Notes under the pieces: model-generated
The model's database searches: none
Told to the model about the DNA's origin: nothing
What the model saw: the letters and a program-made list of their open reading frames with translations, nothing else
Shown here: positions 2,245-4,781 of the stretch, piece after piece
Layout: the number at the start of each line of letters is the position of its first letter
Numbering within the stretch: position 1 is the stretch's first letter
Program-made: the position numbers and the translations under genes
IMG/VR virus record: IMGVR_UViG_2534681663_000014
DNA from: a virus
Lineage: Duplodnaviria; Heunggongvirae; Uroviricota; Caudoviricetes
Strand: one strand, 5' to 3'
Length of the DNA stretch: 4,781 nt

Positions 2245-3639
2245 ATGACAGTAAAAATTTCTGGCGTGCTTAAAGATGGCACAGGAAAACCAGTACAGAA
2301 CTGCACCATTGTGCTGAAGGCCAGACGAACTAGCAGCACGGTGGTGGTGAACACGGTGGCCTCTGAAAATCCGGATGAAGCCGGACGTTACAGCATGGAT
2401 GTTGAGCATGGTCAGTACAGCGTCACCCTGCTGGTTGAAGGTTTTCCGCCTTCACATGCCGGGACCATTACCGTCTATGAAGGTTCCAGACCAGGTACGC
2501 TGAATGATTTTCTCGGTGCCATGACGGAGGATGATGTCCGACCGGAGGCACTGCGCCGCTTTGAGCAGATGGTGGAAGAGGTGTCACGTAACGCCTCCGC
2601 GGTTGCACAGAATACGGCAGCCGCGAAAAAATCAGCCAGCGATGCCAGTGCATCAGCCAGCGAGGCGGCAACTCATGCAACCGATGCTGCAGCCTCAGCA
2701 CGTGCCGCCAGCACGTCAGCCGGACAGGCCGCGTCGTCGGCTCAGTCAGCGTCTTCCAGCGCAGGAACGGCATCAACAAAGGCTACTGAAGCATCAAAAA
2801 GTGCTGCCGCTGCAGAGTCCTCAAAAAGCGCGGCGGCTACCAGTGCCGGTGCGGCGAAAACGTCAGAAACGAATGCTGCAGCGTCACAACAATCAGCAGC
2901 CACTTCTGCATCCACCGCGACCACGAAAGCGTCAGAAGCTGCCACCTCAGCCCGGGATGCGGCGGCCTCAAAAGAGGCAGCGAAATCATCAGAAACGAAC
3001 GCATCATCAAGCGCCAGTAGTGCCGCTTCCTCGGCAACGGCGGCAGGCAATTCCGCGAAGGCGGCAAAGACGTCCGAGACAAACGCCAGGTCTTCTGAAA
3101 CGGCAGCGGGACAGAGCGCCTCGGCTGCGGCAGGCTCAAAAACAGCGGCTGCGTCGTCTGCCAGTGCCGCGTCAACAAGTGCCGGGCAGGCCTCAGCCAG
3201 TGCCACCGCGCCGGAAATCGGCAGAAAGGCCGCATCGTCTGCTTCAACAGCCACAACGAAGGCTGGCGAAGCCACTGAACAGGCCAGCAGCAGCGAGGTC
3301 TGCTTCCGCAGCGAAGACATCCGAACGAACGCGAAAGCGTCGGAAACCAGCGCAGAATCCTCAAAAACGGCTGCCGCATCGTCGCCAGTTCGGCGGCGTC
3401 ATCGGCATCATCGGCGTCTGCTTCAAAAGATGAGGCGACCAGACAAGCGTCGCAGCGAAGGGCAGCGCCACGACGGCATCCACGAAGGCGACAGAGGCAG
3501 CTGGCAGTGCGACGGCGGCAGCCAGAGCAAAAGTACGGCGGAATCCGCGGCAACGCGCGCGAGACAGCGGCAAAACGGGCAGAGGATATTGCATCCGCCG
3601 TGGCGCTTGAGGATGCGAGCACGACGAAAAAGGGGATAG
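2245..3639 (+). CDS. stf: stf fragment as it stands (N-terminal domain plus Ala/Ser-rich rod); authentic frame is kept only to ~3288, later residues are mostly out-of-frame
   Basis: ORF-track ORF of 464 aa. Its tail ...PVRRRHRHHRRLLQKMRRPDKRRSEGQRHDGIHEGDRGSWQCDGG... is Arg/His-rich wrong-frame sequence interspersed with short correct-frame stretches (TNAKASETSAESSKTAAASS, SQSKSTAESAATRA). Confidence 0.6.
   Translation: MTVKISGVLKDGTGKPVQNCTIVLKARRTSSTVVVNTVASENPDEAGRYSMDVEHGQYSVTLLVEGFPPSHAGTITVYEGSRPGTLNDFLGAMTEDDVRPEALRRFEQMVEEVSRNASAVAQNTAAAKKSASDASASASEAATHATDAAASARAASTSAGQAASSAQSASSSAGTASTKATEASKSAAAAESSKSAAATSAGAAKTSETNAAASQQSAATSASTATTKASEAATSARDAAASKEAAKSSETNASSSASSAASSATAAGNSAKAAKTSETNARSSETAAGQSASAAAGSKTAAASSASAASTSAGQASASATAPEIGRKAASSASTATTKAGEATEQASSSEVCFRSEDIRTNAKASETSAESSKTAAASSPVRRRHRHHRRLLQKMRRPDKRRSEGQRHDGIHEGDRGSWQCDGGSQSKSTAESAATRARQRQNGQRILHPPWRLRMRARRKRG
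2590..3560 (+). repeat. Low-complexity Ala/Ser/Thr/Lys/Glu-rich rod region of Stf with recurring degenerate units of the type AAKTSETNA
   Basis: Frame-1 translation is almost entirely A/S/T/K/E/Q/G, with recurring units AAKTSETNAAAS, AAKSSETNASSS, AAKTSETNARSS, NAKASETSAESS. The DNA is GC-rich (GCN/AGC/TCN codons) and open in nearly all six frames. Confidence 0.7.
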
Positions 3640-4199
3640 TACAGCTCAGCAGTGCGACCAACAGCACTTCCGAGTCACTGGCGGCAACGCCAAAAGCCGT
3701 TAAGGCCGCGTATGACCTGGCTAACGGGAAATACACCGCACAGGATGCAACGACAGCACAGAAAGGGATAGTCCAGCTAAGCAGTGCGACCAACAGCACG
3801 TCTGAAACGCTGGCGGCAACGCCAAAGGCAGTAAAATCAGCCTATGACAATGCAGAGAAACGTCTGCAGAAAGACCAGAACGGCGCTGATATACCCGATA
3901 AGGGACGCTTCCTGAACAACATTAACGCGGTCAGTAAAACAGACTTTGCTGATAAGCGTGGTATGCGTTATGTGCGAATTAGCAACGGTAACCATGCCAC
4001 AGGCGAGTTCCATCGTTTACATCGCATTGATTGGTGGCGCTGGTTACAACGTCGGTTCCCCACATCAGGCAGGCATTTCAGAACTGGTTCTACGAGCAGG
4101 CAATGGAAACCCCAAAGGAATTACCGGGGCTTTGTGGAAGCGTACAGCCGTCGGATTAACGAATTTCGCCTGGATCAACACATCCGGCGATACATATGA
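3507..4199 (+). CDS. stf: stf middle fragment as it stands; authentic frame from ~3561 to ~4010 (AKRAEDIASAVALEDASTTKKGIVQLSSATNSTSE...DKRGMRYVRISNGNHATGEF)
   Basis: ORF-track ORF starting at GTG 3507. The first ~18 codons and the last ~60 codons (RLHRIDWWRWLQRRFPTSGRHFRTGSTSRQWKPQRNYRG..., Arg/Trp-rich) look out-of-frame; the central part is typical tail-fibre sequence. Confidence 0.6.
   Translation: MRRRQPEQKYGGIRGNARETAAKRAEDIASAVALEDASTTKKGIVQLSSATNSTSESLAATPKAVKAAYDLANGKYTAQDATTAQKGIVQLSSATNSTSETLAATPKAVKSAYDNAEKRLQKDQNGADIPDKGRFLNNINAVSKTDFADKRGMRYVRISNGNHATGEFHRLHRIDWWRWLQRRFPTSGRHFRTGSTSRQWKPQRNYRGFVEAYSRRINEFRLDQHIRRYI
3630..3848 (+). repeat. Two in-frame copies of a conserved tail-fibre motif KGIVQLSSATNSTSE(S/T)LAATPKAVK(A/S)AYD, period 132 bp
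   Basis: Copy 1 at ~3630-3716 (aaggggatagtacagctcagcagtgcgaccaacagcacttccgag...), copy 2 at ~3762-3848 (aaagggatagtccagctaagcagtgcgaccaacagcacgtctgaa...). About 85% nucleotide identity by eye, separated by a 15-codon spacer. Confidence 0.85.
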
Positions 4200-4781
4200 T
4201 ATTTACGTTGAGATTGGCAATTATGCGACGAGTGTAAATATCCATTGGGATTGTACTGCAAATGCGTCAGTTTCTGTTTATACCTCGCCAACATATTCAG
4301 CGAGTAAGCCTTCCAGCGTTACCTATGGTGTTGTTTATACGATGTATAGCTCACATCAGAAACCTACACCATCAGATATTGGAGCACTGCCAACAACCGG
4401 AGGAACAGTTTCAGGTCCGTTGTCTGTTACAGGTGGATTAACTGGTTCATTGAATGGTAATGCAAGTACAGCCACGAAATTGCAGACGGCAAGATCTATC
4501 GGTGGAGTTGTTTTCGACGGTTCTGCAAATATTAACCTTCCAGGTGTAAACACTACGGGTAATCAGAACACCACTGGTAATGCTGCAACTGCTACAAAAC
4601 TTCAGACTGCAAGAAAAATATCCGGTGTTCCATTTGATGGTTCTACTGATATCACTTTAACCGCCGCGCATGTGGCTGCTTTTGCCAGAAGGGCAACGGA
4701 TACATATGCCGATGCGGATGGTGGCGTTCCCTGGAATGCCGAATCAGGCGCTTACAATGTCACCCGCTCTGGCGACAGCTA
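3970..4781 (+). CDS. stf: stf distal fragment (frame 1), open to the window end; carries the tail-fibre repeats
   Basis: Frame 1 is open from the stop at 3913-3915 to base 4781; it is absent from the ORF track, apparently because it has no stop inside the window. In-frame starts are TTG 3946, GTG 3958, ATG 3970. Translation ...GGAGYNVGSPHQAGISELVLRAGNGNPKGITGALWKRTAVGLTNFAWINTSGDTYDIYVEIGNYATSVNIHWDCTANASVSVYTSP...HQKPTPSDIGALPTTGGTVSGPLSVTGGLTGSLNGNASTATKLQTARSIGGVVFDGSANINL...GNAATATKLQTARKISGVPFDGSTDITLTAAHVAAFARRATDTYADADGGVPWNAESGAYNVTRSGDS. Probably not an independent gene but the continuation of stf after a frame change near 4000-4025. Confidence 0.65.
   Translation, partial: MCELATVTMPQASSIVYIALIGGAGYNVGSPHQAGISELVLRAGNGNPKGITGALWKRTAVGLTNFAWINTSGDTYDIYVEIGNYATSVNIHWDCTANASVSVYTSPTYSASKPSSVTYGVVYTMYSSHQKPTPSDIGALPTTGGTVSGPLSVTGGLTGSLNGNASTATKLQTARSIGGVVFDGSANINLPGVNTTGNQNTTGNAATATKLQTARKISGVPFDGSTDITLTAAHVAAFARRATDTYADADGGVPWNAESGAYNVTRSGDS
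4456..4659 (+). repeat. Two copies of a phage tail-fibre repeat (GNA-S/A-TATKLQTAR-x-I-x-GV-x-FDGS-xx-I-x-L), period 120 bp
   Basis: Frame-1 copy 1 GNASTATKLQTARSIGGVVFDGSANINL (4456-4539); copy 2 GNAATATKLQTARKISGVPFDGSTDITL (4576-4659). Matches the classic tail-fibre repeat family from memory. Confidence 0.8.

Follow-up and report, generated by a model that had tools for sequence, protein, structure and literature searches.

Gene order and layout of the stf locus

The window analysed here (the whole stretch of 4,781 nucleotides) represents contig AQDJ01000025.1 (4781 bp) of the draft assembly GCA_000354975.1 over its full length, as identified by exact matching of gene products; the 464-aa frame-1 product had no exact counterpart on record. 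As a complete short draft contig, the window is one of those that assemblers yield from multi-copy prophage regions. It contains the 3' end of J, followed by lom and a lambdoid side tail fibre gene, stf, which is the gene order of lambdoid Stf/StfR loci. A Pfam search placed PF08400, the N-terminal domain of lambdoid Stf/StfR fibres, at the start of stf. The features are as follows.

1-1428: 3' end of J; J domains lie in 1-1425, including the C-terminal receptor-binding domain Ig_GpJ_C (Pfam)
1496-2096: lom, split by frameshifts; Ail_Lom match in 1496-2093
2245-4781, + strand: stf (lambdoid side tail fibre gene), 3' of J and lom, disrupted by frameshifts and running past the contig end
2245-2646, + strand: prophage tail fibre N-terminal domain (attachment end), PF08400, E = 7e-71, residues 1-134
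2650-3600, + strand: Ala/Ser-rich rod, GC2 0.80, GC3 ~0.5; ~10 single-base deletions at 3209-3559
3610-3716 and 3742-3848, + strand: two Phage_fiber_2 (PF03406) repeats, 79% nucleotide identity between copies
3780-3976, + strand: StfR (Rac-type) segment, 100% identical to stfR in many E. coli genomes
3976/3977, + strand: junction of StfR-type and knob-type sequence, abrupt and out of frame (frame 3 to frame 1)
3977-4365, + strand: predicted all-beta "knob" domain of ~130 residues (KLATVTMPQ...YSSHQKPT), spanning 4200
4190-4659, + strand: low-GC3 tract (42% GC, GC3 0.27), from base-composition segmentation
4366-4455, + strand: Gly/Thr-rich linker (DIGALPTTGGTVSGPLSVTGGLTGSLN), GC3 0.14
4456-4539, + strand: fibre repeat 1 (GNASTATKLQTARSIGGVVFDGSANINL), from protein-level comparison with repeat 2
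4576-4659, + strand: fibre repeat 2 (GNAATATKLQTARKISGVPFDGSTDITL), AT-rich allele; StfR and Chlobot have a diverged allele of the same repeat
4654-4664, + strand: crossover interval (ACTTTAACCGC), from mismatch positions against Chlobot and CMS-2020a
4660-4781, + strand: beginning of the GC-richer distal region common to StfR-type fibres, 87-100% nucleotide identity to StfR and Chlobot

The stf gene of the window can be aligned collinearly with that of E. coli Z247, whose Stf is intact and 1119 aa long. Intact Stf consists of phage_tail_N (1-134), the Ala/Ser rod, two Phage_fiber_2 repeats (~470-546), the central cassette considered here (~578-812), gp37_C (~830-905), Collar (910-957) and the His-box Phage_fiber repeats (~1005-1100), and is followed by the tfa gene. 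The region 4660-4781 was found in ~1,978 of 5,426 E. coli genomes and, in intact homologues, is followed by gp37_C, Collar and the His-box domains, as determined by Pfam on the Z247 continuation.

A first-pass annotation of the window had described an AT-rich module with two tail-fibre repeats in the distal part of stf, and all peptide strings that it quoted were found in frame 1. The two repeats are real and share 75% amino-acid identity. They lie 120 nt apart and have a nucleotide identity of 63%, at which a DNA repeat finder run on the window did not report them; they were confirmed at the protein level. They do not belong to the Pfam tail-fibre repeat families, as neither PF03406 nor PF03335 matched 4456-4659. 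Instead, PF03406 matches 3600-3870, and PF03335 (Phage_fiber) is found near the C-terminus of intact Stf, over the His-box region. Pfam searches of 3973-4779 and 4366-4659 yielded no match even at E = 10, and no Rfam match was obtained for the whole window. Relatives of the repeats, at 69-82% nucleotide identity, occur in 9g, P1, P7 Sv', Goslar, and in T4-like Acinetobacter, Aeromonas and cyanophage fibres.

The repeated frameshifts of stf had been overlooked in the first-pass annotation. Compared to Z247 and B19374, single bases are absent at 3209, 3217, 3228, 3286 (two bases), 3323, 3383, 3451, 3522 and 3559, and lom is also short of bases at 1680 and 1697. In 100-nt bins around the deletions only 0-3 substitutions occur, and most of the sites lie outside homopolymer runs. 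Deletions far outnumber substitutions, which points to consensus error rather than decay. The frame changes at 3209-3559 and again at 3976/3977, with a stop at 4197-4199; thus, an uninterrupted frame of ~1100 aa followed by tfa was not found in the window, and the contig ends 5' of the 3' end of stf and of tfa. In intact homologues, both the full frame and tfa are present. At the junction, 3780-3976 is 100% identical to stfR and 3977-4781 is 100% identical to Z247; the frame shifts at the switch, and no microhomology occurs between the two types of sequence. None of the 5,426 complete E. coli genomes covered 3780-4060 at ≥80%, and an exact search of IMG/VR for the junction gave 0 matches. The junction and the indels probably reflect faulty assembly or a pseudogene, the junction itself being either a mis-join or a genuine illegitimate recombinant. 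With its multiple 1-nt deletions and the out-of-frame junction, the stf copy of the contig is non-functional as written.

The deletions, the junction and the origin of the window from a draft assembly would also fit an artefact in a wider sense, in which the whole low-GC feature stems from a collapsed or chimeric repeat contig. We consider this extremely improbable, as many finished genomes contain the tract and its right joint at 100% identity, e.g. Z247 for 3977-4781. The tract is therefore genuine, and doubt attaches only to the 3976/3977 junction and the indels. When short draft contigs derive from prophage repeats, they may contain frameshifts and one-off junctions to which no biological meaning should be given.

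Base composition of the tract

The GC content of 4201-4660 is 42.2%, compared to 60.5% in 2650-3900 and 59.5% in 4661-4781. This agrees with the ~42% claimed earlier for the tract and with the GC-rich sequence 3' of it; directly upstream (3900-4200, 300 nt), GC content is 49.5% and not within the 55-62% that had been given for the flanks. We performed an unsupervised two-change-point maximum-likelihood scan over 3600-4781, which confirmed that composition is non-uniform and delimited 4190-4659 from all bases and 4189-4659 from third codon positions, matching the limits drawn in the first-pass annotation. On the window alone, support for this segmentation is modest, with an LLR of 8.3 (the highest of 100 shuffles being 8.5) and, as a second figure, an LLR of 9.3 against a shuffle 95th percentile of 8.6, so that significance is only p ~0.01-0.03.

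Codon positions were analysed in the intact stf of E. coli Z247, which is identical to the window throughout 3977-4781. GC1/GC2/GC3 of the tract were 0.44/0.56/0.27 (GC3 41/153). GC3 was significantly lower than in the left flank (576 nt; 0.47, Fisher p = 9e-5), the right flank (567 nt; 0.53, p = 1e-6) and the remainder of the gene (0.50, p = 8e-8), while GC2 was unaltered (0.56 vs ~0.52-0.55). As GC3 falls at unchanged GC2, the dip is synonymous and does not result from amino-acid content; amino-acid composition was thus ruled out as its source. The rod was dropped as a baseline for the tract, since its ~60% GC is driven by GCN alanine codons (GC2 0.80, GC3 only ~0.5).

GC3 is lowest at 4365-4660 (0.14-0.32). 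The step near 4200 is weak (19/55 in 4200-4365 vs 37/76 in 3973-4200, p = 0.11), and the left compositional edge is statistically soft, with a flat likelihood from 4183 to 4363; the right edge is sharp. A TGA at 4197-4199, exactly at the left boundary drawn earlier, closes the upstream frame-3 ORF and is a trivial contributor to the coincidence at 4200. StfR and Chlobot, too, have central cassettes with a higher AT content than the flanking sequence (GC3 0.32-0.44), and a mid-gene dip is therefore general to this variable zone. Their repeat 2 allele is AT-rich at third positions as well (~6/28, counted from the alignment), so that part of the dip may be intrinsic to the repeat family. Intact stf has a second low-GC3 stretch at its 3' end, where the His-box repeats are encoded.

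Right joint, left edge and distribution

We aligned 4540-4781 with Chlobot, E. coli AR436 stfR, phi458, Cyrano and CMS-2020a and then tabulated mismatch positions. Chlobot and phi458 are lambdoid phages; Cyrano and CMS-2020a are phage-plasmids of ~108 kb. The window differs from Chlobot at 50 positions in 4541-4653 and at 1 in 4654-4781, and from CMS-2020a at 2 positions in 4540-4664 and at 26 in 4665-4781. This switch of mismatches between Chlobot and CMS-2020a locates the change of parent in 4654-4664 (ACTTTAACCGC), which encodes the end of the FDGS-DITLT motif, conserved in repeat 2. The GC step at ~4660 is thus a true recombination joint, with a phage-plasmid-like left and a StfR/Chlobot-like right parent. 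The earlier statement that GC-rich sequence resumes immediately after the second repeat was thus borne out, the step coinciding with 4654-4664.

Past the joint, CMS-2020a carries a homologous AT-rich allele with 88% amino-acid identity and a GC3 of 0.33 compared to 0.53 in the window. Composition therefore tracks lineage rather than protein sequence, and the joint shows up as the GC step. This bears on the possibility that no transfer took place and that low GC3 is intrinsic to these modules, for instance through selection of slowly translated AT-ending codons that aid beta trimer folding or through a mutational bias of the repeat family. Such an explanation would account for the dip of the unrelated StfR and Chlobot cassettes at the same relative position, for their AT-rich repeat 2 allele and for the low GC3 over the His-box repeats. 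We regard it as unlikely, as the downstream domain is AT-rich in CMS-2020a and Cyrano (0.28-0.33) but GC-richer in the window and Chlobot (0.50-0.53), although the two kinds of allele share 85-88% amino-acid identity; in addition, other repeat copies have a GC3 of 0.42-0.64, and the composition step falls within 10 nt of the parent switch.

Loss or regain of homology near the joint was also observed in other relatives. Homology to phi458 breaks at 4637-4640, to Cyrano at 4658 and to many phage-plasmids at 4615; in one class of prophages it is lost at 4430 and resumed at 4705. Chlobot and StfR have an unrelated cassette within the same flanks and, like other lambdoid isolates, rejoin the window at 4576, 4591 or 4633. 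Numerous independent break points are concentrated at the repeats (4430, 4576, 4615, 4621, 4633, 4637, 4658 and 4705), and the conserved repeats may serve as recombination linkers.

An alternative route of exchange would be a Cin/Gin/Pin-type invertase acting at a constant/variable crossover site, as in P1, Mu, P7 and e14. Invertases have been proposed in the literature as drivers of stf exchange (PMC3945230), the repeat is common to P7 Sv', and in phi458 the homology ends at 4637-4640, downstream of which lie a pin-like invertase and a fibre fragment in inverted orientation. However, neither the window nor any fetched locus contains an AAACC-NN-GGTTT-type core, no inverted repeats relevant to a fibre switch were found in 3550-4781 of the window or around the phi458 break, and the window has no invertase gene. 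As the joint that could be resolved is 11 nt of ordinary homology, an invertase is a highly improbable agent here.

At the left, the first-pass annotation had placed a module boundary at 4200, and this did not stand. No break of homology at 4200 was found in 80 IMG/VR loci, in the phage and plasmid collections or in 5,426 complete E. coli genomes; breaks occurred at ~3540-3800, 4122, 4430, 4615, 4637, 4658, 4705 and 4895. As no break point lies at ~4190-4200, the unit of exchange differs from the tract defined by composition. A block from ~4000 to 4640-4660 is 95-100% alike in lambdoid prophages, phi458 and phage-plasmids, and weaker collinear homology reaches ~3795 and then, after a difference in Phage_fiber_2 repeat number, the rod. 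The shared block accordingly extends from ~3977 (or 3795) to ~4660, and 4200 is not a joint. The Phage_fiber_2 repeat zone (3610-3848) differs in copy number between relatives and is the recombination zone on the left.

Position 4200 cuts a single domain that starts at 3977. What had been described as the first domain of the module (YVEIGNYATSVNIHWDC...) corresponds to the latter half of this knob (3977-4365) and is not a separate unit. A scan with HMMER against 1.84 billion representatives matched only 159 proteins, nearly all over query residues 2-130, at very varied positions in proteins of 229-2682 aa. The knob forms a conserved block in alignment A1 with variable neighbours on both sides, and it always travels as one unit. 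AlphaFold2 models of the 269-aa region (25 sequences, pLDDT 49) and of the 130-aa knob (60 sequences, pLDDT 46) both contained beta strands throughout at a confidence that makes them unusable, and a sequence search of the PDB yielded nothing at E ≤ 1.

About 180 complete E. coli genomes carry the tract at 100% identity, and matches to it were found in 780 of 5,426 E. coli genomes, at 771 chromosomal and 205 plasmid places. It also occurs in 244 PLSDB plasmids, 241 of which are non-mobilizable; among the matches listed, all are ~100-120 kb, and these carriers resemble Cyrano/CMS-2020a-type phage-plasmids. In a collection of 50,697 phage records, the combination of knob and tract was present only in phi458, CMS-2020a and Cyrano, and the N-terminal two-thirds of stf matched dozens of lambdoid phages. 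Best matches of 4200-4660 and of 2245-3900, which had been suggested as a test of lineage, indeed came from different phages, those of the tract being CMS-2020a, Cyrano and the lambdoid phi458. The remaining lambdoid phages match the rod, and their homology resumes only at the three positions given above. The segment is thus mosaic, with a parent switch at a defined joint and an occurrence in both lambdoid prophage and ~100-120-kb phage-plasmid backbones.

In the fibres of Cyrano and CMS-2020a, the rod (~87% nucleotide identity), the knob and the tract (91-97%) have the same order as in the window. Unlike the window, these fibres start with another N-terminus (MWYREGTITF...), have three repeats instead of two, and continue into a long AT-rich distal part that includes additional globular domains and matches Gp34_trimer; their homology to the window ends at 4615, 4658 or 4895. 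The Cyrano fibre is annotated as a P1 S homologue. Its GC3 is 0.22-0.40 across most of the distal half, and the tract is compositionally at home there.

A probable mosaic shaft cassette and its precedents

Taken together, we consider it very probable that the tract is part of an interchangeable central shaft cassette of lambdoid stf that became mosaic by recombination between phage-plasmid-like and StfR-like sequence at 4654-4664. The tract would form the 3' two-thirds of this cassette, which would consist of the knob domain, a Gly-rich linker and two ~40-residue fibre repeats and would move among lambdoid prophages and ~100-120-kb E. coli phage-plasmids, the latter having a distal fibre that is AT-rich at synonymous sites as a whole. 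Homologous recombination would have fused a phage-plasmid-like left part with a StfR/Chlobot-like right part, the crossover falling within the conserved end of repeat 2 (FDGS-DITLT), and GC3 would therefore leap from ~0.2 to ~0.5 exactly there. The exchange on the left side would have occurred further upstream, in or after the Phage_fiber_2 repeats (~3540-3800); the fall of GC3 near 4200 would therefore be a gradient internal to the cassette and no joint. Composition suggests that transfer proceeded from phage-plasmid to lambdoid phage.

Horizontal exchange had already been proposed in the first-pass annotation, and the mosaic nature of stf and the right joint agree with that proposal while the left boundary at 4200 does not. 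In its original form, the proposal would make 4200-4660 a self-contained, horizontally acquired cassette for receptor recognition (host range) that is bounded by a joint at each GC edge. Consistent with this are the segmentation of GC and GC3 at 4190-4659, the true joint at the right boundary and the presence of the tract in different phage lineages. However, homology is unbroken at 4200 in every comparison, this position splits a domain that is always found whole, and the left GC3 step taken alone is not significant (p = 0.11). Moreover, receptor recognition by fibres of the Stf/gp37 type resides in the C-terminal part, which needs Tfa or gp38. The tract comprises residues 660-812 of the 1119-aa Stf, ~300 residues before the C-terminus, and gp37_C, Collar, the His-box tip and tfa are all located downstream. 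A self-contained host-range cassette is thus decidedly unlikely, and the designation as a receptor-recognition segment could not be upheld, the tract being upstream of the gp37_C/Collar/His-box tip that works with Tfa. Because of this position upstream of the recognition region, the tract was taken as shaft, and its location suggests that the cassette as a whole forms shaft and not the receptor-binding tip. It is unlikely, but conceivable, that the knob and the repeats act as a second, lateral binding unit, e.g. for a surface glycan, in which case swapping the cassette would by itself redirect adsorption, with no need for a change in the gp37_C/His-box tip or Tfa.

Evidence that unrelated phages exchange tail-fibre segments dates back to ~1990. 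Such exchange is said to have been described for lambda, T4, P2, P1 and Mu by Montag in 1989, by Haggard-Ljungquist in 1992, by Sandmeier and co-workers, and by Hendrix & Duda in 1992, works to which PMC3945230 refers. As in the window, these classic cases display segmental mosaicism with joints at conserved motifs; they involve the C-terminal receptor-binding part and the chaperone, whereas the window has exchanged a mid-fibre cassette. Among the closest known systems are lambdoid Stf/StfR fibres (Ur-lambda Stf and Rac StfR, with Tfa), with which the window shares the J-lom-stf locus, PF08400, the Ala/Ser rod and the Phage_fiber_2 repeats. From 4654 on, its distal region is 87-100% nucleotide-identical to StfR/Chlobot, which have a module of their own where the window has the knob and two repeats. 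The gene of the window further differs in being frameshifted and in having a StfR/knob junction not found elsewhere.

The finding is therefore a well-resolved instance of long-known tail-fibre mosaicism and leaves current understanding unchanged. It provides a clean, base-resolved example, with an 11-nt crossover interval in a conserved repeat that is marked by a step in synonymous-site composition, and it documents traffic of a mid-fibre cassette in E. coli between integrated lambdoid prophages and plasmid-borne phages. Experiments have shown that lambda recombines with Rac stfR to give hybrids of many kinds, and stf is named as a well-documented example of a gene passed between unrelated phages (PMC3945230). 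Engineered Stf chimeras make use of the same modularity (bioRxiv 10.1101/2022.09.30.509847), and the natural splice points described here may help designers of chimeric Stf fibres.

Divergence in the C-terminal domain of J

Compared with Z247, an E. coli strain carrying an intact stf, the first 1000 nt of the window were found to be near-identical, and the most divergent part of J lies directly downstream:

1000-1428, residues 345-475 of the partial J: Ig_GpJ_C, the C-terminal receptor-binding domain

Here, 17-42 mismatches per 100 nt occur along with indels, and GC content dips mildly to about 46-48%. As a host-range segment, this part of J is a stronger candidate than the low-GC3 tract in stf (4190-4659).

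Relatives and repeat content of the fibre

The fibre genes of the phage-plasmids Cyrano (L005, 3169-7194) and CMS-2020a (L004) have the lambdoid Ala/Ser rod in common with stf at approximately 87% nucleotide identity; however, their N-terminus is unrelated to the lambdoid one. CMS-2020a harbors a second copy of the knob, the predicted all-beta domain of stf, at L004 6676-7158 (72% amino acid identity). Matches were also obtained with the virulent siphophage 9g (4513-4781, 88.8% nucleotide identity), running across the 4654-4664 joint, the crossover interval, and with the 80-kb phage vB_EcoM-Ro157c2YLVW (4562-4781, 86%). Upstream of the knob, stf contains the following repeats:

3610-3848, + strand: Phage_fiber_2 repeats, spaced by 132 nt and 79% identical

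Their copy number differs between relatives, with one unit fewer in the lambdoid phage phi458, the phage-plasmids and AR436 stfR, and additional units in the homologous loci L025, L026 and L044. Past the window, the 3' end of the intact Z247 stf (L001, 9160-9518) contains a second stretch of low GC3 (0.25-0.33), which spans the His-box (GAHTHS) repeats that belong to the tip of the fibre.

The 3976|3977 junction and the knob

At 3976|3977, StfR-type sequence abuts knob-type sequence abruptly, out of frame and without microhomology. Neither IMG/VR nor any of 5,426 complete E. coli genomes contains this junction, which reflects an assembly error or else an illegitimate recombination. In a minority of homologous loci and proteins, homology begins within the knob, at approximately window position 4122 (residue 47-50), and the sequence preceding this point is unrelated. 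Such starts were recorded as follows:

Loci: L085 and L086, each at about 4000 of the locus
Homologous proteins: P0037 and P0168-P0170

Indels and the end of the contig

The window comprises the entire contig AQDJ01000025.1 (4781 bp) of draft assembly GCA_000354975.1, which stops 128 nt inside a stretch common to several stf types, as is expected for a break at a prophage repeat. Relative to E. coli prophages that are otherwise 97-100% identical, the stf rod carries about ten single-base deletions (3209-3559), and two deletions and one insertion occur in and around lom (1444, 1680 and 1697), breaking lom and stf up into a number of ORFs. The majority lie outside homopolymer runs, three have lost an A after GTC, and these indels are probably consensus errors. 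The lom-stf intergenic region (2094-2243) displays several indels compared to Z247, among them 73 additional nt in the window at about 2145-2217.
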